A stretch of 64,000 bases of DNA from a virus (lineage: Duplodnaviria; Caudoviricetes): the IMG/VR virus record IMGVR_UViG_3300027996_003878, one strand, 5' to 3'. The position numbers and the translations under genes were made by a program. Shown here piece after piece: positions 3,929 through 21,576 of this stretch; within the stretch, counting starts at the first letter, position 1, and every line of letters begins with the position of its first letter. The notes below the pieces were generated by a model. That model searched no databases and had not been told where the DNA came from. It was given only the letters and a program-made list of their open reading frames with translations.

Positions 3929-4786
3929 TTAATTTTTAAATTTAAAAGAAGACTCGTGTAATGTTTGGCGAATTAATCTCTTCTTTCTTTTTTTTGCTAA
4001 AAAGGCATCCATAGAGCGTAATTCAACAACTAATAGTCGGCTAGGCGAGCCACAATCTAGCATCATGAATTCTTCTCTTATTAAAGGCTTATAACTTGAA
4101 CTGCCTAATTTTACCAACTCCTTATAATTGGCGCCGGCAACAATTGTTTTACCACTTAATGCACTTACTTTCTCGCCCATACCAATGCTTCTAATTACAC
4201 TAGTGCAAAGCTTCCTATCAAAAAACAAGCTCTGGAAAGAGCTGCCTTCCAGATCTTTATCTAAATCTAAGCCAGCATGTACAAAAATATAATCCTCTAA
4301 ATGGTAGTAATTAATTGTATGATTTATTAAAAAATTAACATGAACTTCGGGTATTAAATTTAATATCCTGTCAGTCGTCAAACAATGAGGGTTTACATCT
4401 GATACGTTAAATCTTTTAAGATACCCAGAGATAGTCTCGTAGCCGCCACTACGAAGCCAAACGCTGATTGCATCCTCGCTGCACTCAAACGAAAATGGCT
4501 TGTCAATGACACCTAGCTTCCTTAAAATACACGCCTCTGTCGCGCCTCTTAAAAAGACAACCCTATCACCAAATTTCTCTTTTATGTCAATTAAATAATC
4601 AAAAACATAAGCAGATTGCTCTGTTTTGCCTGTATAATTGCCTAAAAATACTAAAGTATCATTGCCGCCATCGCTCTTACGTAGCGGTAAGATTCGAGCA
4701 CAAATATTTTTTAATAAATCTAAAGAGCCGCGTATATCAGGAATTACATATATGCAATTCAGAAAGGACGGACGCCACTTACTCAT
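3929..4786 (-). CDS. Calcineurin-like (Ser/Thr phosphatase family) protein with degenerate metal-binding motifs
   Basis: YVIPDIRG / FLGNYTGK / FLRGATE / FVHAG align to DxH / GDxxDRG / GNHE / HAG. Confidence 0.8.
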   Translation of the reverse strand: MSKWRPSFLNCIYVIPDIRGSLDLLKNICARILPLRKSDGGNDTLVFLGNYTGKTEQSAYVFDYLIDIKEKFGDRVVFLRGATEACILRKLGVIDKPFSFECSEDAISVWLRSGGYETISGYLKRFNVSDVNPHCLTTDRILNLIPEVHVNFLINHTINYYHLEDYIFVHAGLDLDKDLEGSSFQSLFFDRKLCTSVIRSIGMGEKVSALSGKTIVAGANYKELVKLGSSSYKPLIREEFMMLDCGSPSRLLVVELRSMDAFLAKKRKKRLIRQTLHESSFKFKN

Positions 4787-4794
4787 TAAATTGC

Positions 4795-5259
4795 TTAAAA
4801 TGAATCAAATGCTTTGACAACACCTTCAACGACAGAAGGATCTGACGAAACACAAGTATAATCAAGGGTATCACTTACAACATCACTTTTAGATCTCTTA
4901 ACGTACAATGCCCCTGACTCAAAAACATAAAATGATTCACTGACACTTCGTGAAGTTTCGCTCTTATAAATCAGCCTGCCGTCCATAGACCTCACAAGCT
5001 TAAGAACATCAGCATCTTTTGAAGAAGTTGAAATATACCGACTAACATCATGCAAACACGAATTCGTAGATAACGATTGAAAAAATAAAGACAATCGAGT
5101 GAAATTTATCAGATTACTAGGACTGAATTCTTTAGTATCTGGATAAGAGTAAAATTGCCACCACTTTGGCTTTGCCGGCTGTCCAGCGGCAGTGCCGCCT
5201 AAACCTTTTAGCATTTCCATTAACTCATTCATATCAGGCATTTTAGTTTGATTCATCAA
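4795..5259 (-). CDS. Hypothetical protein
   Basis: 154-aa ORF in a co-oriented gene string. Confidence 0.65.
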   Translation of the reverse strand: MMNQTKMPDMNELMEMLKGLGGTAAGQPAKPKWWQFYSYPDTKEFSPSNLINFTRLSLFFQSLSTNSCLHDVSRYISTSSKDADVLKLVRSMDGRLIYKSETSRSVSESFYVFESGALYVKRSKSDVVSDTLDYTCVSSDPSVVEGVVKAFDSF

Positions 5260-5319
5260 TAATTCCTCTCCATATAAGTTCCACTAAAAAGCTTGTGTTA
5301 TCGAAGAATAAAGTTAAAA

Positions 5320-6819
5320 TTAACATCTCTTTTTTCTAACTTCTCTTTTTTTATTGTTTAATCTAAAATAAACGCTATCAACTATTTGCCTCCTGATTCG
5401 TTGCAAGAATACAAGACTATCTATCTCATAATGTGATGGAATTCTAAAATGAGTTACATGAACCGGAGTTCCCGGCAACACAGTGTCATTCATAGATATC
5501 TTAGAAAAACTATACTCTTTTACAGCGCCCATTAAAGATTCCTCAGCGTCTAGGCTCTTTACATCTATAAGCCTACCAATAAAACAAGGCCCATAATCCT
5601 TAAACTTTCTACCACCAATATATTTTTCTTCGGTTTTGTTTGGAATTGTTCTTTTTTCAGTGACATGAGCCTTAAACTCACTGATGCCTAAAAACAATGC
5701 TAAATTAGGATCTGTTAAAGAGACAATATCAATTGTTTCGCCATTTTTTACAATAGAGAATGGCAAGTAATTTTCAACTAATTTTGAATATTCTTGAAAA
5801 ATTCTTGCATGGATAGGAAAATCTGCCGTTTGATGTTTTAAATGAACAAGATAAGAAATCATTTCTTCTGGAAAGTTTGCAAGCATTATCTTAAATGCTT
5901 CGTACATCAACTTCTTCTTCACAAAGGTAGACTTGTTCTGATTTCTTGATATTAATCTAATTTGATTTTCGATGACATCTTTAAGGACATCATGCTCACG
6001 TATGAATCTTTGCTTATGCTCCAACTGATCGTCAGCAAAAACGATTTTATAATCTGTTAAAGTATCCTCAAGCGTAAAATCGCCTCCGTCACCTTGGTTT
6101 AAACTGAAATTAAGGCTTAAAATATTTCTTGAAAATTGCTTAGTGGGGTGACTTTTTTTATCTAAATTATAACTTGCCCCGCAGTAAGAGCAATTAATGT
6201 AAGGGCAAGAGACACCAAACTCTGTCGCAGATGATTCAGGAATAAACCGGACGCATTCTGGACAGCGATAGCCTTTCTTGGAATGCTTAACAAAGGCCCT
6301 ATGAAGCATGAGTCTAGACTCCAGAGAGGCCTTTTCTTCAACAGATGTAACTCTATCAATTTTATTCGAAATGATATTTATTTCTTTCGCACACTCCTTA
6401 CACCGAAAATACTTTCCATCTTTATCAAGCCTCTCAATTTTTCCATAACACCTACAAGCGGGACATATAGGGGCAGTGACTTTTTCTTGCGTATTATTTT
6501 CTTTGTAAATTTTTATTGGAAGAATATTAATACATTTTAATAAGTATAAATTTAAATCTCTTCCGTCCCTCCAATGCTGTAATTTACAAAAGAAAACATA
6601 AAGAGCATTTCTAAGCTCTTGCTTTGCTCTTGCTCGAAACGAGCGTAACAAACTTTCCGGTACCTCGTCCGACAATTTTAAATTGTAAGCTTTGTATATC
6701 AAACGATCTATTTTCGACTTATACAATTCAAAAATATCATTTAATATCCAATTATCTATGTCGTTTTCAGTAATTTTATCGATAATTTGATTAAGCTTGA
6801 AAAAAATATTGTCAACCAT
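5320..6819 (-). CDS. Divergent sigma-factor-like protein with inserted Zn ribbons (likely start 6819, not 6918)
   Basis: Region-2-like AKQELRNALYVFF..RDLNLYLLKCI; CPAC, CKEC, CPEC and CPYINCSYC clusters; region-3.2-like LSLNFSLNQGDGGDFTLEDTLTD. The upstream in-frame ATG is separated by a terminator hairpin. Confidence 0.55.
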   Translation of the reverse strand: MVDNIFFKLNQIIDKITENDIDNWILNDIFELYKSKIDRLIYKAYNLKLSDEVPESLLRSFRARAKQELRNALYVFFCKLQHWRDGRDLNLYLLKCINILPIKIYKENNTQEKVTAPICPACRCYGKIERLDKDGKYFRCKECAKEINIISNKIDRVTSVEEKASLESRLMLHRAFVKHSKKGYRCPECVRFIPESSATEFGVSCPYINCSYCGASYNLDKKSHPTKQFSRNILSLNFSLNQGDGGDFTLEDTLTDYKIVFADDQLEHKQRFIREHDVLKDVIENQIRLISRNQNKSTFVKKKLMYEAFKIMLANFPEEMISYLVHLKHQTADFPIHARIFQEYSKLVENYLPFSIVKNGETIDIVSLTDPNLALFLGISEFKAHVTEKRTIPNKTEEKYIGGRKFKDYGPCFIGRLIDVKSLDAEESLMGAVKEYSFSKISMNDTVLPGTPVHVTHFRIPSHYEIDSLVFLQRIRRQIVDSVYFRLNNKKREVRKKRC

Positions 6820-6883
6820 GCTTTTGTCTGTGATTAAAGGCAGATTAATTAACCGAACGACGCTTTTTAGGCTAATTAGAAGC

Positions 6884-6915
6884 AAAAAAAAGCCGAGATA
6901 TGACCTATCTCGGCT
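6884..6915 (-). terminator. Intrinsic terminator downstream of ftsK
   Basis: Perfect 10-bp stem AGCCGAGATA/TATCTCGGCT, 5-nt loop, followed by a T8 tract on the minus strand. Confidence 0.85.
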
Positions 6916-6981
6916 CATTGTCGTAACTCGACTAAAGCATAATGCACGTATAACAAATACACAAATTCATTATTTTTTCAT

Positions 6982-7992
6982 CTAAGGCGCTATGTAAGCT
7001 GATTGAAACCGTACCTCTCCAAGCGAGGGGCTAATTAAAATGGCATCACCCTTACCCGCCAACAATTCGGCCCCTGGCCGGTCGATGATAACCTGAGAGT
7101 CCACTCTAGAGCTTGTACGGCACGCAATTCGTGCAGGAAAGTTCGCCTTAATTAGGCCCGTCAAGATGTCAACTGAAGGCCTCTGCGTCGCCACAATAAT
7201 ATGAATTCCGCATGCTCTTGATTTCTGAGCAATTTTAACAAGAAGTCTTTCAAATAAATTATTCTTATCATCCGTAATTAAATCAGCCACTTCGTCAATT
7301 ACAATTAATATTTTTGAAAACAAGTTAGGCTTTTTCTTCAAGTCATTGACTCCACGCCTACTCATGATCGCATATCTTTTTTCCATTATTTTTTGGATTT
7401 TTTCAAGCATTTTTATTGTCGCATTAAGATCATTGCAAATTACTTTCGCCTTGCGTTTATAAGAAGAAAATTCTACACGCTTAGGATCTACCAAATACAA
7501 ATCAATATTCTGAAAATTCAATGCATTATAAATTAGGTTATGCAAAAGAACGCTTTTGCCAGAACCCGTTGTACCTGCAATTAGCAAATGGGGGTTATCA
7601 CTCATATCCAAATGCAATGGCATACCGTGATCTGTCTCTCCAATAACAAGCGGGAAAAAACCTCTTAAATTATTACGCTCACGCTTGTACAGTTCTTTGA
7701 GACATAGGGCCTTAGAGTCCCCACGAGTTCCCTGAAGCCGAACAACCCCTTCTTCAGGGATTAGTTTACATGTCAGATTAGATTTTGTTTTTAAATACAA
7801 AGAGATTTCATCTATATATTTTTTAATCTCAGCTACACGATGGCCAGTTTTAATCATCGCATCATAGCTAACAAAATGACGATGCTCTCGTGCATTAACA
7901 CAAACAGCGCCGATCTTAAAAGACTGAAACGCTTTATTTAACTCCAACCTCATTGCAGAACTCATGACAGCATCGCAACCTTTCCAGACCAT
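6982..7992 (-). CDS. ftsK: FtsK/SpoIIIE motor-domain ATPase (no membrane or gamma domain)
   Basis: PHLLIAGTTGSGKS, LVDPKRVEF, IVIDEVADL, RACGIHIIVATQRPS, ANFPARIA, GAELLAGKGD. Confidence 0.9.
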   Translation of the reverse strand: MVWKGCDAVMSSAMRLELNKAFQSFKIGAVCVNAREHRHFVSYDAMIKTGHRVAEIKKYIDEISLYLKTKSNLTCKLIPEEGVVRLQGTRGDSKALCLKELYKRERNNLRGFFPLVIGETDHGMPLHLDMSDNPHLLIAGTTGSGKSVLLHNLIYNALNFQNIDLYLVDPKRVEFSSYKRKAKVICNDLNATIKMLEKIQKIMEKRYAIMSRRGVNDLKKKPNLFSKILIVIDEVADLITDDKNNLFERLLVKIAQKSRACGIHIIVATQRPSVDILTGLIKANFPARIACRTSSRVDSQVIIDRPGAELLAGKGDAILISPSLGEVRFQSAYIAP

Positions 7993-8153
7993 CTACCCTG
8001 ATGCATACTCCACTCAAGTATCCGCCTGAACATAAAAACATGATCAGAATTATAATAATTAATCCTTAACGGCTCTTGATCAATAAATTCTTTGATTTTT
8101 TTATTGCTAAATATACTTTTATAAGTTGACTTACGCATCTTAATTAAATTCAA
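7962..8153 (-). CDS. Hypothetical protein
   Basis: 63-aa ORF overlapping both neighbours (coupled string). Confidence 0.45.
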   Translation of the reverse strand: MNLIKMRKSTYKSIFSNKKIKEFIDQEPLRINYYNSDHVFMFRRILEWSMHQGRWSGKVAMLS

Positions 8154-8416
8154 TTTTTTTTTACCAAGTCTTTGTTGAAAAAATGAGCGCTAATATCTTT
8201 GTAAAGAAAATGCACATCCATGGACAATTCTTTACATACTCGCCTATGATCTTTTTTAAAAAGATCTTTTCCCTCATTGAACAAAAACTGATTACTTTTA
8301 CCAGTAACTCTGTCGTTTGCCCGTAATTTAGCCCTAACGACTCTTTTCAACTCATCGCATCTTTCGCCATTTCCAGATGCAACTAAAACACTAAATAATT
8401 TTGGTATTGTCACCAC
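8150..8416 (-). CDS. Hypothetical protein
   Basis: 88-aa ORF with a GGAG RBS upstream. Confidence 0.6.
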   Translation of the reverse strand: MVTIPKLFSVLVASGNGERCDELKRVVRAKLRANDRVTGKSNQFLFNEGKDLFKKDHRRVCKELSMDVHFLYKDISAHFFNKDLVKKN

Positions 8417-8483
8417 AACTTTGAACTCCTCATGATTATAAATTTAACCACTGAAGCTCACAGTGCAAGTTTTTTAATAATTA

Positions 8484-8903
8484 CTAGTGCTGTTTTTTTA
8501 TTTTTTGAGCAATTTTTAATAATTTATCACTTCTTGAGATACTAGAATCTTTTAACAATTCAACCTTATCTCCTAATTTAATTTTAAATTTGATTGCATG
8601 GCCAAAAGGTAACTCGATAACCATGTCAGAAGGCTCATTCGGGCCAACAGACTCTGTACTGAAGGGCACTCCCTTACAGATATCTATAATCTTACCTTTT
8701 TTACAGAAAATGATATCTAAAGGCGACGGCGTATCCTTCATCCAAAACTTCCTAACCATTGGAGTTCTGTAGGGAAAGACCATGCAATTTGGCGGCCACT
8801 CAACGCCCATCAATCCCTTTTGATACTCAAGTGAGCAAGTGGGAATAATTACATCAAAAATATGTTCATTTATTTTTATAATACCAGACTTCATTACTAC
8901 CAA
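8484..8903 (-). CDS. DUF192 family protein
   Basis: QKGLMG..MVFPY....FWMKDTPSPLDIIF...VIELPFG motifs. Confidence 0.85.
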   Translation of the reverse strand: MVVMKSGIIKINEHIFDVIIPTCSLEYQKGLMGVEWPPNCMVFPYRTPMVRKFWMKDTPSPLDIIFCKKGKIIDICKGVPFSTESVGPNEPSDMVIELPFGHAIKFKIKLGDKVELLKDSSISRSDKLLKIAQKIKKQH

Positions 8904-8945
8904 CCTTGCTAATTAATATTATATAGTTAATAACAAATTATTAAT

Positions 8946-9599
8946 TTATTTTATCTTTGATGCCTTGTCAGTAATTTTCTTTTTTTTTAATGGCTTATCA
9001 ATAAGTCTAGGTATGTCTTTTTTAGGTCTTATTATTTTATCAATTAAACCATAATTCAGCGCCTCTTCCGCTGTAAAATATTTATCCGTAACACAGTCTT
9101 TTCTTATTTTGTCCAAAGTCTTGCCGCAATGTCTGGCCAAAATATTCATAAGCACTTCGTTCAACTCCTTAACTCTATTTGATTCCAGTTCAATTTCTTT
9201 TTGACTGCCCTGAATTCCCCAAACTTGAACTGCATGAATCATTACCTTAGAGTGCTGGTAGGCAAATCGCTTACCCTTAGTGCCTGCCGATAAAATAACA
9301 GCAGCAGCAGAGTAGGCTTCTCCTATACAAATCGTCCTAACCGGAGATTCAATAAATTGAATTGTATCATATATAGTTAATAAACCATCATTAACAGTGC
9401 CGCCTGGACTATTAATATAAATTGAAATATCTTCTTTATTATTTTGCGAATCAAGCCAAAATAAAGTAGCAGTGAATGCAGTTGCGACTTCGGCGTCAAT
9501 TTCGTCATGCAAAAATAGTATTCTATCTTTTGCTAATCGAGAATAAATATCATATACAGCTTCACCGCCCTTGACTTTTTCATAAATCATCGGATGCAT
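8946..9599 (-). CDS. clpP: ATP-dependent Clp protease proteolytic subunit
   Basis: YDIYSRLAKDRILFL, YINSPGG, GEAYSAAA (Ser), VMIH (His), DKYFTAEEALNYGLID. Confidence 0.95.
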   Translation of the reverse strand: MHPMIYEKVKGGEAVYDIYSRLAKDRILFLHDEIDAEVATAFTATLFWLDSQNNKEDISIYINSPGGTVNDGLLTIYDTIQFIESPVRTICIGEAYSAAAVILSAGTKGKRFAYQHSKVMIHAVQVWGIQGSQKEIELESNRVKELNEVLMNILARHCGKTLDKIRKDCVTDKYFTAEEALNYGLIDKIIRPKKDIPRLIDKPLKKKKITDKASKIK

Positions 9600-9648
9600 A
9601 TTTGTAATAATTAAATGTTAAAGATCTTCACGACATAAAAAGAAAAAT

Positions 9649-9678
9649 AAAAAACCCGCCAAATTGGCGGGCTTTTTT
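9649..9678. terminator. Bidirectional intrinsic terminator
   Basis: A-tract, CCCGCC-aaatt-GGCGGG, T-tract. Confidence 0.85.
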
Positions 9679-9701
9679 ATGACTAATATTTTAAGCTTAA
9701 A

Positions 9702-10223
9702 TCAGTCAGCGGGTGAGATGTTTTCTAGTGCAGATATTTCGATAATCTTAGGAGCAGGCGTGCTTCTTTTTTTATCTGATCTTGGACTCACTTCATGCGT
9801 GAAAATAAAATAAGCCGCAATATCGCTATTCTCCAAATAATTAGCAACGCCACACCAACCGTTAAATACAGCTTCTTTGCGAACGCCATTAAAACGAAGA
9901 TCTGCAAGGTTCATTTTTACACTTGCGCGCTTTTTAACCTTGCTTGCAGAGCCACCCTTCTTATCAAAGAACGGACCATAAACAACTTGAGGCTCGACAT
10001 TCCATTTTTCCACAAAAATATCTACGACATTCTTTTTAGAAAAATTATCGTTTTCGTTGTCCTTTAGCTTGTCTTTATAATCTATAGAGCGATATCTTTC
10101 AGAAACCAGCTCGTTATTGATTAACGATGAACAAACCCAAATAACCGGGCGCGACCCCTTCGGCGCCCCTCTTTTTTTCTTTTGAATATTTTCAGATTCA
10201 GTTGAATTTTCAATTTGATTCAT
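9702..10223 (-). CDS. Hypothetical basic protein
   Basis: 173-aa ORF with its own sigma70-like promoter and terminator; KKRGAPKGSR AT-hook-like segment. Confidence 0.7.
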   Translation of the reverse strand: MNQIENSTESENIQKKKRGAPKGSRPVIWVCSSLINNELVSERYRSIDYKDKLKDNENDNFSKKNVVDIFVEKWNVEPQVVYGPFFDKKGGSASKVKKRASVKMNLADLRFNGVRKEAVFNGWCGVANYLENSDIAAYFIFTHEVSPRSDKKRSTPAPKIIEISALENISPAD

Positions 10224-10322
10224 TTAATTATTACCCTACCCCTGAACTTTTATTTAGTAACGTAATATTAATAATTTAAAAAAATTACTAAATAATTGTT
10301 CAGCGTTTCTTTGTACCTGAAG

Positions 10323-10351
10323 ATATTAAGCACCGCTCAAAAAGATGTCAA
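10323..10351 (-). promoter_or_regulatory. Sigma70-type promoter
   Basis: TTGACA-17 bp-TAATAT on the minus strand, upstream of 9702-10223. Confidence 0.75.
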
Positions 10352-10488
10352 GAGAATGTAGTGAGATGTAGCAAAATAATCCAAAAAGCCCAGTTTTATT
10401 GAAAATTAACGAATAAAACCAATAACTTGTTAGTGTTTTGTCAATGTTCTGCAAAACCAATGACAAAGAGGAAAAAGAAACAACGATC

Positions 10489-10815
10489 TTACTTTTTTTT
10501 AAAAAAGTCTTTTTTCTCTCTAATTAAATTACTGAACTCAGAGTCAGGTATAAATTTGGTACTATTAAAGCTTTCAACATATTTTGCCTCATCTGAGAAT
10601 GGTAATTTTGCAGAATGTCCATGAAATACGTAATTAAATAATGTTCCAAAATTTTTTATGTATATAGCATTGTTATTCAATAATTCATTTTCTAAAAAAT
10701 TGGAAATTATTCTACAAGAATCAATCAAATATTTTTTTGGCACTTGGCCGTCCAACTTTTCGTATAGAATATTCACCAGCTTAGTTCTATTGATTCTCAA
10801 GATTCTCCTTTTCAA
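10489..10815 (-). CDS. HU/IHF-like DNA-binding protein
   Basis: NRTKLVNIL..., IYIKNFGTL, C-terminal KFIPDSEFSNLI. Confidence 0.75.
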   Translation of the reverse strand: MKRRILRINRTKLVNILYEKLDGQVPKKYLIDSCRIISNFLENELLNNNAIYIKNFGTLFNYVFHGHSAKLPFSDEAKYVESFNSTKFIPDSEFSNLIREKKDFFKKK

Positions 10816-10972
10816 TTAACTTCAATCTTGCATAAAGCTCTTCTCTAAGGGGGATGATTTTAGTATCAAGCGTGCGAACCTCCCTCATAAGTAGATCTTT
10901 TAATTTTCTTAATTTTTTTAATTCATGCTCTATATCTTCACATGTGCAATCTTCAATATTTTTAAATTTCAT
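10787..10972 (-). CDS. Small coiled-coil hypothetical protein
   Basis: 61-aa heptad-like ORF within the gene string. Confidence 0.55.
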   Translation of the reverse strand: MKFKNIEDCTCEDIEHELKKLRKLKDLLMREVRTLDTKIIPLREELYARLKLIEKENLENQ

Positions 10973-10984
10973 TTAATGAAATAT

Positions 10985-11467: not shown

Positions 11468-11485
11468 TTTTCCTCCAAAAAAAAG

Positions 11486-11986: not shown

Positions 11987-12309
11987 AACTTGATTTTGAA
12001 ATTAGCCAACAATGACTGGAGACTATCACTAACAATGCCAAATGAGCCCTTAAAACCTGAAAGGTTTTGTATTTTCGGAAGCTTATCTAACTCCTCTGAA
12101 ATAAAAGACTGATAGTCAAAATCATCCCCAGCCAGCTTCCGTCTTGCCAATTCCTGCATACATTCTAGAGCAAACTCTCGATTCATTCCTAATGATTTAT
12201 ATATTATCACTTGAGATGCTAAAAACTTAGAATCGCTCTCACTGATTCTTTTTATTGCATCTTCAATAGATTTTTTTAAAAAAGTACCCTCGGAGCTATC
12301 TTCATTCAT
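11983..12309 (-). CDS. Hypothetical protein
   Basis: 108-aa coupled ORF. Confidence 0.65.
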   Translation of the reverse strand: MNEDSSEGTFLKKSIEDAIKRISESDSKFLASQVIIYKSLGMNREFALECMQELARRKLAGDDFDYQSFISEELDKLPKIQNLSGFKGSFGIVSDSLQSLLANFKIKL

Positions 12310-12744: not shown

Positions 12745-13671
12745 ATGGATATTGTTATTGAACGTGGCAAAGTTGTTGATATTGAAACTCTGCCAGAATT
12801 CTCTATTGCTCTTGACGGTTATGTTCAAGGCCCCAGAATCGATTCAAAACACAAAAGATATAGTTTCGATCATCACGGAGACTGCATTCGCTTTTGCACC
12901 ACTTCAGCCTGCATGCAAACTTGGACCGCAATACTCTTAGGTCTAAATCCCCAAGATTACACAGTATTTGCAAATGATATCGATGCTGATGTCTGCGTCA
13001 GCGTATGGTGCCTAAAAAACCCCGAAAGATGCACAGAGCCACTAGTGAAGAAGCTCGTAGATGCCGTTGGCATAGGCGACATGCACGGAGGGGCGCTAAC
13101 AAGTAATGGAATGACCAAAACGGTCGAATGGATTAGCGCTCCAGAAACTGATTCAAAAAGAAACAACGATTACCACAAGCTATCCAATGACGGCCTCGGT
13201 ACTATTATGGAGTCGGTTCTCCATCGAATTGACATGTACGTCAACGGAGAGGCTTCGGCAGAAATAGCAAAGCAGGCAAAGCACGGAGAGTATAAAATTC
13301 TCAGAAATGAAAATAACTGGGTCTTAGCAGAGTCTCAGGACCCTCATGCGCTATCTTCTCTTTATCAAGGTGGTTTTGATCGTATTTTGCTAACAAGGCC
13401 TCAAGAAGACGGCTCTATCGCCGTAACAATCGCAAAGAGGAGCGACTTTATAAGCAGCTTCCCAATAACTAAAATGTATGATGAGCTTAACAAATTAGAA
13501 GATGGCTGGGGAGGAAGCTCAATTATTGGTGGTGCGCCAAGAAATGATGATGGCTCAAGAACTAGATTATCTTTAGATAAGATTTGTGAAATAATTGATA
13601 ACTGCGTGCTCAATAAAAAAGTTCAAAGCGTAACAAAAAGATCTAAAAAAACAAGATCAAAAAAAAGCTAA
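12745..13671 (+). CDS. DHH-family phosphoesterase-like protein
   Basis: SFDHHG, NDIDADV, GDMHG; C-terminal GWGGSSIIGG (DHHA1-like). Confidence 0.65.
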   Translation: MDIVIERGKVVDIETLPEFSIALDGYVQGPRIDSKHKRYSFDHHGDCIRFCTTSACMQTWTAILLGLNPQDYTVFANDIDADVCVSVWCLKNPERCTEPLVKKLVDAVGIGDMHGGALTSNGMTKTVEWISAPETDSKRNNDYHKLSNDGLGTIMESVLHRIDMYVNGEASAEIAKQAKHGEYKILRNENNWVLAESQDPHALSSLYQGGFDRILLTRPQEDGSIAVTIAKRSDFISSFPITKMYDELNKLEDGWGGSSIIGGAPRNDDGSRTRLSLDKICEIIDNCVLNKKVQSVTKRSKKTRSKKS

Positions 13672-13675
13672 AGAA

Positions 13676-14335
13676 TTATATTAAAGTAGATTCTATACGA
13701 TTCTGATTAAAGATTTGAACACACAAGCGCCCAGTTTTCTCAGGCCGAGTATTTATATTACAAGAATATGAGTAATACTTTGGAAGGCCGTCAGAGTCAG
13801 AGCTACCTCCACTTACCACATAACCAAACCTGCCATCATAATAATGATGCCATGACTTAGAGCTTACCTCTGCCTCCTTGTCCGGCAAGATATCATTTAC
13901 AAAGCAAGAATCTATATCATTTGAAATATTGTACCAAGAAGAATTGGGCTTAATTCCCCCGTGAAGTACAGTCACGCTGTTAGTTGAATTAAATGAAAAC
14001 CCCACAACTAAAGGCTGTTTCTCCATCCAAAGAACAAGATCAGTTATTTCTCTTCTCTCCCTCGCCTTTCTAATGTGAGCCAATTCATTCACACCGCGAA
14101 CAAAAAATACTTTACCAGACTTTTGTAAATCAATTATTTTTTTATAAATAGAAATATCTTCAATAGTGTAATCTACACTGGAAGCATTTCCAACAAAGCA
14201 TATATAATTATCCCTCAACAAAGAATCTAAAGAACCCAACAAGCCCAGCTTTTTAAAAAAAAGCTGGGCTTGTCCATTTATATTACCAAAAACAATTAAC
14301 TTGCCATTATTTAAAATATCAACCTTACCAAGCAT
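13676..14335 (-). CDS. Second calcineurin-like protein with degenerate motifs
   Basis: IVFGNING / CFVGNAS / FVRGVNE / VLHGGI occupy the DxH / GD / GNHE / HGG positions. Confidence 0.7.
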   Translation of the reverse strand: MLGKVDILNNGKLIVFGNINGQAQLFFKKLGLLGSLDSLLRDNYICFVGNASSVDYTIEDISIYKKIIDLQKSGKVFFVRGVNELAHIRKARERREITDLVLWMEKQPLVVGFSFNSTNSVTVLHGGIKPNSSWYNISNDIDSCFVNDILPDKEAEVSSKSWHHYYDGRFGYVVSGGSSDSDGLPKYYSYSCNINTRPEKTGRLCVQIFNQNRIESTLI

Positions 14336-14338
14336 ACA

Positions 14339-15070
14339 TCAAAATTTATAAGGAGTTAAAAATCCAATTTCTTCGGTAAATTGCCTCGCCATTTTCTCTT
14401 CAAGACTTTGCGCCTTGTACCCAAGCTTATGGTACAATCCGTATTTATAACTAAGCGCATGATAAAGCTCATGAGCAAAAGCATGATGAAACTCATTCAC
14501 TCTAATTTTCGCCTTCCCAAACCGAATTACGGTGCGATGTTTATTCAACACGTCATTTCTTACATAAAGATGGCTTGATTGCCTAGAATAATAACCCCAA
14601 AGATTACCTTTACCCAACGATTTTGCCCTCTCACGAAAGCGATACTTATAATCGTTCAAATTTCTGGCAGATCGACCTCCATCATAACTAGCAAAGGGAA
14701 GAAGAGAGACATCTATTCTTGAAGGGAGTTCATATTTATATTTATTAGACGAAACTCTTTTAATATTCAATCTAACTTTGTATTTTTTGATAAAGTGGGC
14801 AACCACATAGTTACAAGTCGCATTTAACTCTTTAACACTATGATACGTTCTCTTTGAAATATTATACTCAATATTTGACGGACGCCACTCCACAATACGT
14901 ACATTCTTACACAAATATTTAAGTTTAATTGTTTTTCGCAAACGCTCCGATGGCATTGTCTCCTCCATACAGAAAGACTTTGACTTAAAAGTACAAGCAT
15001 CCAATGCAAAAGAGTTATTTGAAAAAGAAATAACACTCAAAGCTACAAATAAAAAATAAAAAATTCTCAT
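14339..15070 (-). CDS. Secreted putative zinc metallopeptidase
   Basis: Signal peptide (MRIFYFLFVALSVISFSNNSFA) and FAHELYHAL (HExxH). Confidence 0.6.
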   Translation of the reverse strand: MRIFYFLFVALSVISFSNNSFALDACTFKSKSFCMEETMPSERLRKTIKLKYLCKNVRIVEWRPSNIEYNISKRTYHSVKELNATCNYVVAHFIKKYKVRLNIKRVSSNKYKYELPSRIDVSLLPFASYDGGRSARNLNDYKYRFRERAKSLGKGNLWGYYSRQSSHLYVRNDVLNKHRTVIRFGKAKIRVNEFHHAFAHELYHALSYKYGLYHKLGYKAQSLEEKMARQFTEEIGFLTPYKF

Positions 15071-15117
15071 GAATATAATATAACTATTGTTATTTACATG
15101 TCAATATTAAATCGTTA

Positions 15118-15408
15118 CTAAATGGCTTTTTTTCTTTCTTTTTCAATCCGAGAGCTTTGCCAGTGCCAAATTGTTTTTTGTAGCTCCGAGTAAGAATTTA
15201 TATTTAAATTTGAAGAAAGAAAGCAAATAATCATAACAATTTCGCCATAAACTACTCCGATAGCCTCCTCAGACAACTCACCGCTGATAAGCTCACTGAT
15301 AAGATTGTTGAGCCTGGCCGCGCTATCCAGAAGTGATAGATTGTGCTTTTCAGCCTCACGCTCAGCTTCCTCCCACAAAACCTCAAAATGCTTCAAATTA
15401 GACCTCAC
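15118..15408 (-). CDS. Hypothetical protein, possibly MazG-like helical fold
   Basis: YGEIVMIICFLSSNLNINS loosely resembles MazG ELGDLL..LA..L.ID. Confidence 0.45.
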   Translation of the reverse strand: MRSNLKHFEVLWEEAEREAEKHNLSLLDSAARLNNLISELISGELSEEAIGVVYGEIVMIICFLSSNLNINSYSELQKTIWHWQSSRIEKERKKAI

Positions 15409-15414
15409 AAATAA

Positions 15415-15445
15415 AAAACCCTTGTTTTTTTATAACAAGGGTTTT
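15415..15445. terminator. Inverted repeat / terminator
   Basis: AAAACCCTTGTT-7 nt-AACAAGGGTTTT. Confidence 0.75.
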
Positions 15446-15472
15446 ATTTTTCTTTATTATTTATACGCCGCT

Positions 15473-16084
15473 TCACCTTGCAATGCTATAAACATAAGAT
15501 CCTCGTGTTCCATCGACAACAATATCACCACGCTTTTTCAATTGAAACAAATAACTATTAAGCATAGATCTTTTAATATCTACCTTTTGCTGTTTTAGGT
15601 AGGACTCAAGATCTCCAGCGGAGATGCCTTTATTATGACTGCCAATGGCGCTCAAAACAGCTGAAGTTTTTGTATTAGCACGTTTTTTAGACTTCGGCTT
15701 AGCCTTATTAACATGACTTTTTACCAACCCCTTAGTCTCTTGAGGGCGCTTATTTTCTTGAGGGCGCTTGCTAGCAGGAGCTGAATCAATATCAGATGAC
15801 TTTGATCGATTTTTTGACTTACGATTCAAGGACTTATTATTGTCACTAAAATTAAATGCGTCTACAACATTACGCAATTCATAATAACTTTTTTCAGCTT
15901 GAATCATTTTTCGCTGAAGATGCCCTTCAATCAAATTTCTAAACTTTTCATCATTCTGAATCATTTCATTCAAAAGAGCTACCTGGTTTTTGGTCAATTG
16001 CTTCATAGTTTTCCTTATCATTAAAAAGATTTTGGCCTTATTTAAAGGCCGCTTACAGAGAGTATAATAATAACAAAAATACAC
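15473..16084 (-). CDS. Basic DNA-binding protein with C-terminal winged helix
   Basis: Low-complexity K/S/R linker, then GISAGDLESYL..NSYLFQLKKRGDIVVDGTRGSYVYS. Confidence 0.6.
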   Translation of the reverse strand: MYFCYYYTLCKRPLNKAKIFLMIRKTMKQLTKNQVALLNEMIQNDEKFRNLIEGHLQRKMIQAEKSYYELRNVVDAFNFSDNNKSLNRKSKNRSKSSDIDSAPASKRPQENKRPQETKGLVKSHVNKAKPKSKKRANTKTSAVLSAIGSHNKGISAGDLESYLKQQKVDIKRSMLNSYLFQLKKRGDIVVDGTRGSYVYSIAR

Positions 16085-16112
16085 AAGTCAATAGCATTAC
16101 TTGTAAAAAAAT

Positions 16113-16141
16113 AAAAAAGCCTCAATAAAACATTGAGGCCT
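16113..16141 (-). terminator. Intrinsic terminator
   Basis: GCCTCAAT-5 nt-ATTGAGGC with a T-tract on the minus strand, after 16173-16715. Confidence 0.75.
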
Positions 16142-16172
16142 TTAAATTTATGATTTAAAATAAATAATACCT

Positions 16173-16715
16173 TTAGTAGTCCTTAGGGTAGTCTCTGAAA
16201 TTATTGAAGCTATCATTAAAGTCACGACCCGATTGGTAATCAAAACCATCAGATCCGCGATTATAATCACCACCTCGAACTACAACATCATAATTACTAC
16301 GATTATAATTTTGACGTGAACGATGAGGTCGGTTGTACTCCTTAATCGGACCTACAACCTGCAATTCCTCACAGCCATCCTTACTTGTGAAGATGATAAA
16401 GATCATTCCTTTGCTGCAATCAATTGCACCTCGAAACATCAACTTTCCAACATAAAACTTTTTCCCATACTTATCTTTTCTGGAGTCAAGGCTAACTCTA
16501 ACCCTATCATTTCTTTTCGAATATTTGGAGAATGTTGTATTATCATTATTTATAGTTGCAACCTGCAACTCCTCCTCACCATCTTCAGAAAGAAAAATCA
16601 AAAACGTCACACCGTCAGAGCAATTAATCGATCCAGGAAACTGAAGCTTCCCTAAATGAAACATACTACCGTTTTTATCTTCTCTTGGATGTAATTCTAC
16701 TTTCATATTAACCAT
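16173..16715 (-). CDS. Hypothetical protein with two internal repeats
   Basis: L..R.DK.G..F..GKL.F.G.I.CS.G..F.IF.S.DG.EELQV occurs twice; tail rich in R/G/D/Y/N. Confidence 0.7.
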   Translation of the reverse strand: MVNMKVELHPREDKNGSMFHLGKLQFPGSINCSDGVTFLIFLSEDGEEELQVATINNDNTTFSKYSKRNDRVRVSLDSRKDKYGKKFYVGKLMFRGAIDCSKGMIFIIFTSKDGCEELQVVGPIKEYNRPHRSRQNYNRSNYDVVVRGGDYNRGSDGFDYQSGRDFNDSFNNFRDYPKDY

Positions 16716-16792
16716 AATACCTATCCTATTTTTTTTAATTTAACTAATTGCCTAAATAATAATCCTTGCAACAAACAATCAAGGCTACGTAT

Positions 16793-16821
16793 ATAATAAC
16801 CTTAAAGGCATTCCTAGTCAA
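16793..16821 (-). promoter_or_regulatory. Sigma70-type promoter
   Basis: TTGACT-17 bp-TATTAT. Confidence 0.6.
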
Positions 16822-16948
16822 GTGCAGCGTAAACCCCTAGAATCATTGAAAAAAAATAAAGGTGTAATAAAAACATTGTAAGTTGCAATAAATCTTTATT
16901 TATAATTAAAATTATAATTAACAAAAATATATGAAATTATTAATATTT

Positions 16949-17752
16949 TTATTTTTCATTGAATAGATTTTTCGCTCTAAATACGTCATAACCATTAAGC
17001 AATATATTATATATAAAATCTTTGTCATCTAAAAAGACTGGTATGTCGCTATCAAGCGTCCATTTATTTTTTTTTAATTCCTTATTATTGTTATTGATTA
17101 ATGTTGGTACTTTATAAGCCGCTGTACCTCGAACAAAGCTAGTCGGGTATAAATTGTAAAAATTAATATCACAAATTTCAAACAACAAATCTATTTTTTC
17201 TTCAACTGTCTTTCCGCTAATTAATCTTTCAGCTTCATGTCTGCCATAAACATCTGATATGTAATAAAAGCAAGAGTCATAAATTATTGATCTAATAGAC
17301 TTCTGTTGCCTGTACATTAGATAATTGTAAACCTCAGCCAAAGACGGTAATGCAAATGCCTTTGAATAGAAGGCCACATCACCAGAATTACTTAAATCTG
17401 CCCTACACTTATTGAGTGACTTAATAAACCCTAGCGTAACCAAGCTTGCTGATATTGAAGATATTTTTTGAACGTTATTTTGATACCAAGAGTCATTGTC
17501 ATTTTTAATGATTAAATTAATCTCATCATAACATTGTAATACAAAAACTGCGCTTTGAACGTTAGTAGCCAAAAAAAGAGAAGCATCACCCATGCATTCC
17601 ATTAGAAATGCATCAAACGAGCCATATTCTAAATCAAATATCTTTTTTAAATTTCTTGCTTGTATTCTTATAGCTAAAGGTAGTCCGCTTGTAATTTTAT
17701 AATCATAACAGTCCTCATAAATTAACTGTCTTTTAGCTAGTGATAATGACAT
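16949..17752 (-). CDS. Thg1-like (tRNA-His guanylyltransferase family) protein, degenerate
   Basis: AIRIQARNL (cf. RLDGRxF), QCYDEINL (cf. QSDE), YLMYRQ, GKTVEEKIDLL, FVRGT. Confidence 0.8.
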   Translation of the reverse strand: MSLSLAKRQLIYEDCYDYKITSGLPLAIRIQARNLKKIFDLEYGSFDAFLMECMGDASLFLATNVQSAVFVLQCYDEINLIIKNDNDSWYQNNVQKISSISASLVTLGFIKSLNKCRADLSNSGDVAFYSKAFALPSLAEVYNYLMYRQQKSIRSIIYDSCFYYISDVYGRHEAERLISGKTVEEKIDLLFEICDINFYNLYPTSFVRGTAAYKVPTLINNNNKELKKNKWTLDSDIPVFLDDKDFIYNILLNGYDVFRAKNLFNEK

Positions 17753-17754
17753 TT

Positions 17755-18333
17755 TTAAAATTTAGAATCTAGTAATTTTATAAAAGAATTTATACTACCC
17801 AGCTTATTGACTGGGATGCTTATACCAAGATGACCTCCTGTTCTAGGAATCTCGATAATTTTTTCACAATAATCATTCCAAATCTTGCTATTTCGAGCGC
17901 ACCACCCTGCAATGTGAAAGTGGGGTTCAAAAAAACCATCATTAAACTTTGGCTCTTTCAAATGAATAAAAACCTGAATGTAAGCATCAATTTCTTTTGT
18001 AATTTCTTCCTTTTTTATAAAAAGGTTCAAATTATCACGGTAAGGATAATAGCTACTAGTTTTTATATTAATAAGCTTTGTTGCATTATTAACCTTTACT
18101 ACTAAATCTGATTCGTCGCCCGTCCCTACACAAAATTCAATGCTACACTTTTTATGCTGGCGACTTAAAATATCAAAGATTAGCAAGCTTCCAATCAAAT
18201 CTAAAAGATCACCCTCACCGCGCTCTTGATCTTGAGTCTCATTAAATCCAGAATACCTTTTATGCGGAGTATAATTTAAATAAGTATATTGAGCGTAGTC
18301 TAAAATTTGAGAAGGAATTATATTTTCATTCAT
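17755..18333 (-). CDS. Putative PD-(D/E)xK-fold nuclease-like protein
   Basis: GDESDLVV....INIKTS followed by a beta-rich core. Confidence 0.4.
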   Translation of the reverse strand: MNENIIPSQILDYAQYTYLNYTPHKRYSGFNETQDQERGEGDLLDLIGSLLIFDILSRQHKKCSIEFCVGTGDESDLVVKVNNATKLINIKTSSYYPYRDNLNLFIKKEEITKEIDAYIQVFIHLKEPKFNDGFFEPHFHIAGWCARNSKIWNDYCEKIIEIPRTGGHLGISIPVNKLGSINSFIKLLDSKF

Positions 18334-18395
18334 GATAAATAATTGTAAGTGAGAGCTTTAAACCCTCACTTATACAAAATAATTAAAATTAAAAT

Positions 18396-18641
18396 CTAAA
18401 CTTCAAAGTTTAGATTTATATCTAAATCGTTATTATCAACAGTTAACTTATCATTCAGAACAAACCATTGATCAAGATTACACCGCATAGCCATTACTGC
18501 TCTATCTGAGCAACGATACAATGTGTTATTAACCTCTGGTTCTTCGCTATGCAGAGCCTCTAGCGCGGAAAGTATATCGTAATGATGACTCAAAACTTCA
18601 CCAGAAAACGACTCAATCTCAAAATTAATCTTACTGCTCAT
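18396..18641 (-). CDS. Hypothetical protein
   Basis: 81-aa ORF with a GGAG RBS. Confidence 0.6.
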   Translation of the reverse strand: MSSKINFEIESFSGEVLSHHYDILSALEALHSEEPEVNNTLYRCSDRAVMAMRCNLDQWFVLNDKLTVDNNDLDINLNFEV

Positions 18642-18805
18642 TTAAACTCCCCGTTTATTCGCACACATCAGCGTTGATGAGACATCAACCCCTTTAAGGT
18701 TATACAAAGCAAGGAAAAAGTCAAACAAAAACGAACAAATCACAGCACAATGAACAGGTTATCAACAGCTTAAATTATACATAAACAAGAGATATATAAA
18801 AATAC

Positions 18806-19063
18806 ATGAGACTTAATGCATTATTTATGCTAACTATCTTGCTAAGCGGTTGCAACTTTGGTAATTTTCATCTTGAGTATATAGCAAATAGAAAATTCGA
18901 ATATTGTATACTGTTAGACATGGCGCAAAAAATAAATGATGGCGAAAAATTAGGTTGCTGGATAAAATGGCTATACTACAATTATGAGCATGCCAGCGAA
19001 GAAAGAAAAAAATATGGAGCAAAGAGGGTTAATGATATTTACTCCATAATTAAATTCAAATAG
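18806..19063 (+). CDS. Putative lipoprotein
   Basis: Lipobox-like ILLSGC after a hydrophobic N-terminus. Confidence 0.45.
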   Translation: MRLNALFMLTILLSGCNFGNFHLEYIANRKFEYCILLDMAQKINDGEKLGCWIKWLYYNYEHASEERKKYGAKRVNDIYSIIKFK

Positions 19064-19247
19064 ATCTAATTCTACCTGTAGCTATACCTTCTCCATTCAA
19101 GGTGTCAATAATATTATTGATAATAGCGCCGACAAGCAATAATTGCCCGGATAATTCATCACAATCAATTAAATTATCGTTCAAGTAGTCAATTTTAGAT
19201 TTTAAATCACCAAGCTCTTTAGCAATATTTTTTTTAGAGCCAAGCAT
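19056..19247 (-). CDS. Small hypothetical protein
   Basis: 63-aa ORF ending the minus-strand string. Confidence 0.5.
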   Translation of the reverse strand: MLGSKKNIAKELGDLKSKIDYLNDNLIDCDELSGQLLLVGAIINNIIDTLNGEGIATGRIRSI

Positions 19248-19251
19248 ATAA

Positions 19252-19662
19252 TTAATTGGTAAGATAATTTACCACAAGACTATGAATCGAGCTATCTACA
19301 TTTGACTTCCAGCTATCATCATTATTTTTTATTGACTCTCTAATTGCCGTGGCGGAGATAAAACCAATATCCGCCGGAGGCTTATGCTCAATCGTGCCGT
19401 AGCCTACGCCTCTCCCCCAATTGACGCTTTCTATGTCGGGGATGACCATTACCTCCACATCTTGATCTTTATAAACTTCTTTGATCATTTTCACAGTTTG
19501 ATCTGTGGTGAATGGGTTTTTCTCATCAGGAGGAATGTCTCGAACACAGATCAAAACAGGGGTTCCCTCATCAAGCTTTTGACTAATAAGCCACTTGTGG
19601 CCGTTATGCATCGGCTGCCATCTACCTATAAACATAGCTCTTTTCATATTAACCCTCATCAC
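19252..19662 (-). CDS. HxGH-class nucleotidyltransferase (cytidylyltransferase-like)
   Basis: FIGRWQPMHNGH and ISATAIR motifs. Confidence 0.85.
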   Translation of the reverse strand: MMRVNMKRAMFIGRWQPMHNGHKWLISQKLDEGTPVLICVRDIPPDEKNPFTTDQTVKMIKEVYKDQDVEVMVIPDIESVNWGRGVGYGTIEHKPPADIGFISATAIRESIKNNDDSWKSNVDSSIHSLVVNYLTN

Positions 19663-20008
19663 CTAATAATTGACTTTCAACTTGAGACCAGCTTTCAAAT
19701 CTCAAAGCATGATCATCAATATAATAACTAGCAGCTATCTTCGTATTTGTAACATCATCAAAATAAGAAGAAAGATTATATTTTTCCAACCAGGGAACAA
19801 TATACTTAACTGGCCTGCTTGACATAACGACCAAGCGGTAACCTTTACTCTTTAATTTTTTTAAAGAAGCCTCTACCCCCTCCATTGGAGGATCATAAGC
19901 ATTATCTAAACCTTGAAAGCCCCTGGAATATCGATGAATTACTCCATCAAAATCAATTGCAAGGGTTTTTCTTTTTTGCTCTAGTGGTATCTCTTTAATC
20001 TCAGACAT
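19649..20008 (-). CDS. HAD-family phosphatase
   Basis: LAIDFDGVIH, SSR, K..ASYYIDDHA. Confidence 0.85.
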   Translation of the reverse strand: MSEIKEIPLEQKRKTLAIDFDGVIHRYSRGFQGLDNAYDPPMEGVEASLKKLKSKGYRLVVMSSRPVKYIVPWLEKYNLSSYFDDVTNTKIAASYYIDDHALRFESWSQVESQLLGDEG

Positions 20009-20059
20009 AACAAATAACCAATGTCTAAAAACACATAAGAAAATTAATGTATCGACAAA

Positions 20060-20410
20060 TTAAAAATTTATAACCTCAATACCATCTTCGGTTGTATAAT
20101 AAATTTTATTAACTTTTTTTGTTTTTATTGCACTCATGCAGCGCGCACAAGGCCTGGCAAGGCCGTAAGATCCATCCCTCTTAACCCTAGCGACGTAAAG
20201 AGTACATCCAAAACCACACTTTCTTAGCACCCTTGTCTCTGCATGAATATACGGAGTAACGACTCGATTTGAAGTATTTCGTGATGTTACAATAACACCA
20301 TCTGCCCGAACAGCAGCCGCCCCCAAATAAAAATGACGACGACGATCATTATTAAATTTAGCAGCGCTCGCCGCCAAATCAATCATTCTTTTAATTTTCA
20401 AAGACATCAA
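20060..20410 (-). CDS. Zn-dependent cytidine/deoxycytidylate deaminase-like protein
   Basis: HAE and ARPCARC motifs. Confidence 0.85.
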   Translation of the reverse strand: MMSLKIKRMIDLAASAAKFNNDRRRHFYLGAAAVRADGVIVTSRNTSNRVVTPYIHAETRVLRKCGFGCTLYVARVKRDGSYGLARPCARCMSAIKTKKVNKIYYTTEDGIEVINF

Positions 20411-20694
20411 TTACGGCTAATCGAACTATCAATACTTCCGTCATCCTGTGCAACTTTTAAGAGCACCAAATATCCTATTAAATCCATAACCGTATCTTCA
20501 TCTAAGTCATTTCCATGACCGTTAGAAATTCTGGACAATTTATCATCAATGCGGATTTTTATTTGCTCAACAGAATCCGCTCTTGAAAAAACTCTGATTG
20601 GAGAAATTGCCGAATCTCCATATTTACGATTTTTTGAAATTAATAAATCTTTAACTTGATCTACTACAGATAATATTTTATCTTCTGTACTCAT
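20407..20694 (-). CDS. DUF1599 / nucleotide-modification-associated domain protein
   Basis: KNRKYGDSA..IRIDDKLSRI..EDTVMDLIGYLVL. Confidence 0.75.
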   Translation of the reverse strand: MSTEDKILSVVDQVKDLLISKNRKYGDSAISPIRVFSRADSVEQIKIRIDDKLSRISNGHGNDLDEDTVMDLIGYLVLLKVAQDDGSIDSSISRN

Positions 20695-20700
20695 TAATAA

Positions 20701-21576
20701 CTAATCTTCAAACTTTGAAGCCTCTCGTTTTCTATCTAAATATACAGAAGCTCCGTTGTACAAAAAATCTGAAATCTTACGAAGATCTAACTTAGATGTA
20801 TAAACAATATGACCTAGTTCTTTATTGTTTTTCGATCTTTTTACTTTAATATCTCTTTCCCCAACACCACAATGGTTTTTCAGGACCGCCATGAAAGATT
20901 GTAAAAACTCAACAGGGCCGCTTGTTTTAAAGTATACAACCCTACCGGTATCTTTATCTTTATAAAAGTTACCCTTGGCATCCACCCACCCTCTAAGAAA
21001 ATGTCGAACCAAAGAATGATTCTTAACCCAATCAGGCATGTTATAGTTATAAGTTTTAGAAGAGGTTACATTGAATTCTTCTTCTAAATCTGTAACCATC
21101 TCCTTTGAAGATACCAAAAACCTTACCGTCAAATAAGGGTTTGTATTTTTGTTAATGGTCAATTTTTTTACAGGGGCCTCGGATTTGATCGCATTCTTTA
21201 ACTTATTTAAAAACGCCTCTTCTCTAAAAGACATATTAACAAAAATTCTATAGCTAGACTTTCCGCTTGTATTTCGAGAGATATTTCCATTTCCCGCTAA
21301 AAAGCCAGCCCAATAAAACTGCTCCTCCCCTTCTCTTGAAAAGAAGCGATGATCGCAATCATATTTTCTAAAAGAAAAACCATATTTAATATTATTTTTC
21401 TTAAATAGGCCAACCATTTTTGACCGACTCATATTATACTTTTTCGCTACTTTAGAAATATTCTTGTATTTTAAGTAATCATCCTGCAATGCTTTTCTAA
21501 CATCACCGCTAAGGACCCCCTCAAAATCAACAAGACTATTTAAACTTAAATCATCAAATAAAATATTTTCACTCAT
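20701..21576 (-). CDS. Free-standing double-motif LAGLIDADG-fold protein with N-terminal HTH, catalytic residues altered
   Basis: YWAGFLAGNG and HFLRGWVDAKG motifs. Confidence 0.75.
   Translation of the reverse strand: MSENILFDDLSLNSLVDFEGVLSGDVRKALQDDYLKYKNISKVAKKYNMSRSKMVGLFKKNNIKYGFSFRKYDCDHRFFSREGEEQFYWAGFLAGNGNISRNTSGKSSYRIFVNMSFREEAFLNKLKNAIKSEAPVKKLTINKNTNPYLTVRFLVSSKEMVTDLEEEFNVTSSKTYNYNMPDWVKNHSLVRHFLRGWVDAKGNFYKDKDTGRVVYFKTSGPVEFLQSFMAVLKNHCGVGERDIKVKRSKNNKELGHIVYTSKLDLRKISDFLYNGASVYLDRKREASKFED

Follow-up and report, generated by a model that had tools for sequence, protein, structure and literature searches.

The motif residues of PPP-type phosphatases form a dinuclear metal center, as in the structure of lambda phosphatase (1g5b). 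The metallophosphoesterase fold may also be retained without this center; in Vps29 of the retromer and in the B-subunits of archaeo-eukaryotic DNA polymerases, the ligands were lost and the fold is kept for protein-protein interaction. WhiA of Gram-positive bacteria is not an endonuclease, but a vertically inherited, domesticated LAGLIDADG transcription factor (PMC3384342, PMC3240954). T. maritima WhiA has Arg and Gly in place of the acidic residues and shows no digestion of DNA (PMC3384342). In the Bacillus thuringiensis Thg1-like protein (BtTLP; 4kgk), D30 and D75 jointly hold both Mg ions, and these carboxylates are described as essential (PMC3701042). The present study compared these systems with four genes in a 64-kb stretch of viral DNA (IMG/VR record IMGVR_UViG_3300027996_003878; the whole stretch is called the window below). 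The genes encode two metallophosphatase-like proteins, PP1 and PP2, a Thg1-like protein, and a protein with a helix-turn-helix (HTH) and two LAGLIDADG domains:

3929..4786, minus strand: PP1, PPP-type (NinI/RLPH2-like) pseudophosphatase, 285 aa, intact open reading frame (ORF)
13676..14335, minus strand: PP2, ApaH-like pseudophosphatase, 219 aa, intact ORF
16949..17752, minus strand: Thg1-like protein of an Asp-less clade, 267 aa, intact ORF
20701..21576, minus strand: HTH and two LAGLIDADG domains, 291 aa, intact ORF

An earlier note on this DNA had described at least four full-length ORFs that lack catalytic residues and contain no stops or frameshifts; we found the four that it listed at these positions with the motifs it gave. 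We conclude that they are probably four independent pseudoenzymes, which kept their folds and the majority of their conserved non-catalytic positions, lost the residues for catalytic metals, are under purifying selection, and most likely function by binding and not by catalysis. In the Pfam alignment that the note had proposed, both Thg1 domains and LAGLIDADG_3 scored above the cut-off, PP1 and LAGLIDADG_1 were just below it, and PP2 had no match.

The window (G+C approximately 34%, genes tightly packed) is from an uncultured marine jumbo phage with a contig of approximately 296 kb, because the proteins it encodes are found again on contigs as long as 296 kb, their closest relatives are IMG/VR viral contigs of 90–450 kb, and the stretch is present in seawater metagenomes from 19 studies. 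The sequence is not an assembly artefact since seven independent contigs from different samples are 99.99–100% identical over 6949–27752. At the nucleotide level, the 17.6-kb region had no match among the phages of GenBank, and no RNA dataset was listed among the public runs carrying the stretch.

The metallophosphatase-like proteins PP1 and PP2

PP1 and PP2 share the fold and motif order of lambda phosphatase/NinI, RLPH2, and ApaH-type PPP enzymes, and the orthologues of PP1 and close homologues of PP2 carry the full GDxHG / GDxxDRG / GNHE / H / GH set. In contrast, PP1 lacks seven of nine and PP2 six of seven of these motif residues; therefore, the dinuclear metal center of the family cannot form in either. 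Vps29 and the polymerase B-subunits belong to unrelated eukaryotic or archaeal lineages, unlike PP1 and PP2.

PP1 belongs to the PPP/ApaH branch of the calcineurin-like metallophosphoesterases (PF00149). Its Pfam Metallophos score was 19.3 bits (cut-off 21.5), it matched phrog_246 (E=4.8e-10), and the profile of its orthologues matched RLPH2 (5vjv, E=3.4e-10) and also PP2A. It is a positional orthologue in the order ClpP-DUF192-orf532-PP1-orf181-TopoI, and is located between orf532 and TopoI in five distinct relatives. These five syntenic orthologues read DIHG / GDYxDR / GNHE / H / GHN, whereas PP1 reads DIRG / GNYTGK / GATE / H / GAN. The losses are H19R, D50N, D53G, R54K, N82A, H83T, and H219A, with D17 and H170 retained, and they were only found in the species of the window (both strains).

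The divergence of PP1 from its orthologues (35–42%) is comparable to that of its neighbors TopoI, orf532, and orf181 (37–45%). The active orthologues share 80 invariant columns, of which PP1 retains 56; seven of the 24 losses are the canonical metal or catalytic residues, and the others are mostly conservative. Retention was 54/71 for non-catalytic columns and 2/9 for catalytic columns (Fisher p=0.0025), and, thus, the active site was specifically struck and did not drift uniformly with the rest of the protein. The N-terminus (MSKWRP..NCIYVIPD) is invariant across all orthologues. Since the N-terminus and the surface are invariant, PP1 may have the same partner as the active orthologues. We speculate that it still binds their partner or substrate without dephosphorylating it, as a trap, scaffold, or regulator.

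PP2 itself had no Pfam or PHROG match. Its place in the PPP/ApaH branch of PF00149 is supported by sequence and fold: it matches a PF00149 protein (E=6e-27), its homologues P0002 and P0003 carry PF00149, and its AlphaFold2 (AF2) model (predicted local distance difference test score [pLDDT] 95) has an intact metallophosphatase fold. Foldseek matched this model to ApaH-like 2qjc (template modeling [TM] score 0.72), lambda phosphatase 1g5b, and the phosphatase domain of CthPnkp (4j6o). The motifs GNING / GNASS / GVNE / SGG replace GDxHE / GDxYDKG / GNHE / SGH of the active homologues, and H125 is the only one of seven ligand positions retained, whereas 26 of the 35 remaining conserved columns are kept (p=0.005). 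PP2 also retains the family-invariant motif W..YDGRFGYVVS.

An exhaustive HMMER search identified 92 relatives of PP2. In the family alignment of 82 rows, all seven ligand positions are present in 27 and four or fewer in 52. Approximately 40 rows form a deep, fully degenerate clade. Other degenerate forms are scattered in the canonical clade, in which a quick tree gave approximately five state changes, three of them forced by well-supported branches. The W..YDGRFGY strand is near-invariant throughout. PP2 of the window and an L012-type protein that has three of the seven ligands are sisters at approximately 40% identity; since both are degenerate, the loss predates their split and has advanced since. 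The conserved core appears to be the YDGRFGY strand, not the metal site, which suggests that in much of the family the role never depended on the metal site. PP2 may act as a ligand-binding or scaffolding subunit.

Two further genes flank PP2. Convergent with it, orf308 (12745–13671, plus strand) has a DHH motif (FDHHGD) and only a weak match to DUF6687 in Pfam. It is the best-conserved gene of the region, with 82% identity to its L012 orthologue versus 34–63% for most neighbors. On the other side, orf243 (14339–15070, minus strand) stops 4 bp ahead of the PP2 start; its product begins with a hydrophobic segment resembling a signal sequence, has a C-terminal metalloprotease-like motif (HELYH, of the HExxH type), and showed no family matches.

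The LAGLIDADG and Thg1-like proteins

The LAGLIDADG protein has an N-terminal HTH (residues ~30–70) followed by two domains, LAGLIDADG_1 (PF00961, residues 89–179, 22.6 bits, cut-off 23.1) and LAGLIDADG_3 (PF14528, residues 190–267, 27 bits); phrog_4645 matched residues 30–285 (E=2.6e-31). Its motifs are ..FLAGNG and ..WVDAKG, versus ..ADG and ..DGDG in true phage homing endonucleases. Five true phage endonucleases have D as the penultimate, metal-binding residue of both motifs; in the window protein, this acidic residue is replaced by N96 in motif 1 and K201 in motif 2. All six members of its clade (35–97% identity) have N or S in motif 1 and K or V in motif 2. The gene is not in an intron, intein, or sporadic insertion; it is free-standing among conserved ORFs, and the order LAGLIDADG-orf95(-dCMP deaminase) is kept in L012 and L013 (63 and 49% identity, respectively). 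More distant members of the clade adjoin Pkinase/PP2C genes of other large phages (L024 and L025).

Similar to WhiA/DUF199, this protein joins two LAGLIDADG domains with replaced acidic residues to an HTH, and is vertically inherited and non-mobile. However, the HTH of WhiA is C-terminal, and the WhiA family was absent among the Pfam matches of the window protein at E<=1. Its nearest relatives in sequence are intron-type homing endonucleases of phages, such as gp36 of 0305phi8-36, indicating that domestication occurred independently of WhiA, inside large phages. Judged by its motifs and context, the protein appears to be a domesticated endonuclease in parallel to WhiA. It may be a regulator or DNA-organizing factor that binds DNA but does not cut it, and we infer DNA binding without cleavage more securely than the function of the other three proteins.

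The Thg1-like protein matched Thg1 (PF04446, 42.7 bits), Thg1C (PF14413, 27.5 bits), phrog_4717 (E=2e-25), and BtTLP (E=1.5e-17), with which it shares the fold and both Pfam domains. Its Q31 is aligned with the metal-binding D30 of BtTLP, and its D76-E77 correspond to D75 and E76. In BtTLP numbering, which is used hereafter, the substitutions are D30→Q, G31→A, K43→G, S74→Y, R16→D, and R131→K, while E12, R28, D75, E76, and K99 are retained. In BtTLP, K43 and S74 position the activating nucleotide, and R28, K99, E12, and R131 grip the triphosphate of the incoming nucleotide (PMC3701042). Therefore, one of the two metal-holding carboxylates is lost, and the activation and nucleotide site is altered at K43, S74, and R131, with R28 and K99 present. 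The retention of R28, K99, and E12 together with R131K suggests that the protein still grips a triphosphate ligand or an RNA 5′ end. We speculate that it binds an RNA 5′ end, tRNA, or nucleotide without 3′–5′ addition.

Scans of viral contigs with single proteins as the query found nothing for the Thg1-like protein, PP2, or the LAGLIDADG protein; an alignment-based scan for Thg1 yielded 240 loci. In a tree of 73 distinct phage sequences, two clades were resolved. Clade B (36 rows) conserves all 11 functional positions (position 43 being K or R). The second clade comprises a small number of canonical sequences and their sister, a 32-row Asp-less group (Shimodaira-Hasegawa-like approximate likelihood ratio test 95), which lies apart from canonical clade B and constitutes approximately 40% of distinct Thg1-like sequences from viral contigs. 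Position 30 in this group is N in 30 rows, Q in the window, and K in the L012 orthologue. The N-type sequences have lost E12, R16, R28, S74, and R131, and N30, K43, D75, E76, and K99 are invariant across all 30. The L012 orthologue is 50% identical to the window protein, and both lack K43 and S74. At least three jumbo-phage records (G001, G002, and G003; loci L107–L112) each carry one canonical clade-B copy and one Asp-less N-type copy, tens of kilobases apart. The window protein may similarly work beside a canonical paralogue. In a survey of jumbo phages, Thg1 only appears as a sporadic tRNA-repair enzyme (PMC7824862). We found no description of the Asp-less clade in the papers searched, and it is apparently undescribed; literature searches on phage pseudoenzymes, jumbo-phage Thg1, and Vps29 likewise yielded no account of the clades reported here.

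Located 2 bp upstream of the Thg1-like gene, orf192 (17755–18333, minus strand) has a restriction-endonuclease/PD-(D/E)xK-like fold by sequence features and structure. It has D...N-I-K in place of (D/E)xK, as does its L012 orthologue (61% identity), and its active site may be the fifth altered one. Across 80 other loci, no linkage between orf192 and Thg1-like genes was seen. LAGLIDADG and Metallophos genes near a canonical Thg1 gene in L026 proved to be unrelated to the window proteins.

Selection and competing explanations

The ratio of non-synonymous to synonymous substitution rates (dN/dS, omega) was estimated by Nei-Gojobori counts against a sister strain with approximately 97% identity, represented by three contigs (L014, L113, and L114), with binomial p values; the seven clonal contigs were not usable for this purpose. 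PP1 showed 21 synonymous and 10 non-synonymous changes against L113 (omega 0.12, p=2.6e-8). The LAGLIDADG protein showed 13 and 10, respectively, against L014 (omega 0.18, p=1e-4) and 5 and 5 against L114 (omega 0.24). Purifying selection acts on both proteins, and was weakly detected for the Thg1-like protein, in which changes were few (four synonymous, one non-synonymous; omega 0.06, p=0.007). The pooled omega of the four genes was 0.16 versus 0.17 for 20 neighboring genes. No strain variants were found at the substituted motif residues. In the diverged strains of three runs, 12 of 13 listed indels were intergenic or in frame and none of those listed was inside the four ORFs; two of them compensate each other where a neighboring ORF begins. 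Furthermore, the dead state of PP2, the Thg1-like protein, and the LAGLIDADG protein is conserved in relatives at 35–63% identity.

A cysK-like pyridoxal phosphate (PLP) gene beside PP1 (2812–3710, plus strand) serves as an internal control. It has a 1-nt deletion between 3003 and 3004, just past its TSGN motif, and is intact (299 aa) in the sister strain (L113:2841–3740). Since the split form (71 + 216 aa) was present in 12 contigs from several samples, the frameshift is real, and it is recent in the strain of the window; the C-terminal part has a dN/dS of 0.02. Thus, a real loss of function in this phage leaves a frameshift.

When a pseudoenzyme is defined as a homologue that lacks catalytic residues and is under purifying selection, PP1, the LAGLIDADG protein, and the Thg1-like protein qualify by dN/dS and PP2 by deep conservation only. 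The proposal in the earlier note that dN/dS would be below 1, reflecting selection for non-catalytic roles, was accordingly borne out for the first three (omega 0.06–0.24) and is only plausible for PP2. The same note had regarded canonical residues in orthologues as a sign of lineage-specific decay or sequencing error. The orthologues of PP1 do keep these residues, yet PP1 is under strong purifying selection, and the reading in the note is therefore not refuted; the losses in the other three proteins are shared by relatives.

Several points weigh against the four proteins being non-catalytic binders. Their loss of activity was inferred from motifs. The strain comparison of PP2 (1.2 synonymous and 3.8 non-synonymous changes, omega 0.8, p=0.70) is uninformative with approximately five changes. 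For the LAGLIDADG protein, AF2 gave only a poor model (pLDDT 54, six sequences), and the profile of this protein matched no solved LAGLIDADG structures by sequence. Moreover, the invariant residues of the N-type Thg1 proteins could reflect an altered active site that is still working and not a dead one.

This last point belongs to a broader alternative, namely, that chemistry was altered rather than lost, using relocated or different residues or a single metal. Some proteins classed as pseudoenzymes have migrated catalytic residues (PMC10211241), and the Thg1-like protein is the most plausible case: the five invariant residues in 30 diverged Asp-less sequences resemble selection on a pocket, and the window protein keeps five functional residues of its own. 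However, BtTLP requires both D30 and D75 for its Mg ions, the window and L012 proteins differ at the key site (Q versus K), and K43 and S74 are gone in both. Similarly, the metal and catalytic residues lost from PP1 and PP2 have no replacement ligands in the same columns, and the LAGLIDADG protein lacks both acidic residues, as does WhiA, which does not cut DNA. We consider altered chemistry to be unlikely.

The earlier note had also regarded the genes as a cluster and their state as a possible general strategy of the lineage. As a rival explanation, they may form a coordinated anti-defense module, or reflect a lineage-wide policy, with sponges or decoys acting against host immunity based on nucleotide signals, tRNA cleavage, or phospho-signaling. 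All four genes are located within 18 kb of an accessory region, active relatives in jumbo phages are tied to the repair of RNA and the degradation of nucleotide signals (PMC7824862), and viral contigs widely carry both the degenerate PP2-type family and the Asp-less Thg1 clade. However, the four genes are not adjacent, with more than 20 others lying between them, and the four losses arose separately, at four different ages. The contexts of relatives also differ; the LAGLIDADG protein adjoins Pkinase/PP2C genes in L024 and L025, PP1 is beside TopoI in all relatives, and orf192, the conserved neighbor of the Thg1-like gene, lacks this link at the 80 other loci.

A lineage-wide policy is also disfavored by at least 15 other enzymes in the window that keep their catalytic motifs on inspection. 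These include the Toprim acidic residues and catalytic Tyr of the topoisomerase, the triads of ClpP and a trypsin-like protein, the Walker motifs of FtsK and MoxR, HAE/PCxxC of dCMP deaminase, DxD of a HAD protein, HxGH of a nucleotidyltransferase, SGGxDS of a PP-loop protein, GDEGKGK of adenylosuccinate synthetase (AdSS), PLP lysines, HxD...H of PhyH, HExxH of DUF2201, and the Cys of GlmS. The dead share is approximately four of 24 recognizable enzymes and is not clearly above the value for human kinases, of which approximately 10% are pseudokinases (PMC10211241). A coordinated module or policy is therefore very unlikely, and neither the cluster nor the general strategy was upheld. The four genes occur together only because this is an accessory region of the phage, and they are not one system.

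Decay in progress, in which recently inactivated genes have not yet acquired stops, is extremely unlikely; the confinement of the PP1 loss to one species, the strain-level dN/dS of PP2 near 1 (five changes), and the freshly broken cysK-like gene adjoining PP1 favor it, but PP1 is under strong purifying selection, the dead state of the other three is older than splits at 35–63% protein identity with frames that stayed open, PP1 and PP2 retain 74–76% of their non-catalytic conserved columns, and the gene that is truly broken here shows its decay as a frameshift.

Genomic setting and significance

The region consists of accessory (non-structural) genes, including topoisomerase I, ClpP, an FtsK-like ATPase, two sigma factors, a TilS-like PP-loop protein beside tRNA(CAU), dCMP deaminase, a HAD protein, a nucleotidyltransferase, adenylosuccinate synthetase, and GlmS, among others. 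In the relative L012, 18 syntenic genes span 34–82% identity to the window, a range that includes its Thg1-like protein (50%) and PP2 (40%).

Several observations were made on other genes. The tRNA with anticodon CAT (24864–24938, minus strand) adjoins the TilS-like protein (25050–25661, minus strand), in which SGGIDS is intact; the pair may be a phage tRNA-Ile2 with its own lysidine synthase, and not a tRNA-Met. Two copies of a unit of approximately 35 residues (..GKLxFxGxIxCSxGxxFxIFxSxDGxEELQV) are present in orf180 (16173–16715, minus strand), and strains from two runs show a polymorphic in-frame insertion of 12 nt at 16199 in this gene. An MT-A70 methyltransferase (62247–63176, minus strand) has DCPW in place of the family motif DPPW. 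The longest ORF of GlmS (57038–59002, minus strand) has 14 extra residues ahead of MCGIFGY, which must supply the N-terminal catalytic Cys, and its true start is probably an internal ATG.

Annotation pipelines call the four genes phosphatase, tRNA-His guanylyltransferase, and endonuclease (one source labels PP1 "serine/threonine protein phosphatase 1"); these labels are probably wrong for activity. The present results also show that a run of dead enzymes in one neighborhood need not be a system. They provide three leads: a phage-borne counterpart of the domestication of WhiA, a large sister clade of phage Thg1-like proteins that lack the Asp and occur alongside canonical copies, and a viral family of ApaH-like proteins in which the metal site was lost repeatedly. 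There is a small but appreciable chance that the Asp-less Thg1 clade and the largely ligand-less ApaH-like family represent classes of phage proteins that are widespread, have not been described, and serve a new role. If so, this role may be that of a subunit in the tRNA repair of phages that regulates or binds RNA ends, the sequestration of host nucleotide or capped-RNA signals, or, for Thg1, a new one-metal chemistry, and the four genes of the window would be a first glimpse of such classes.

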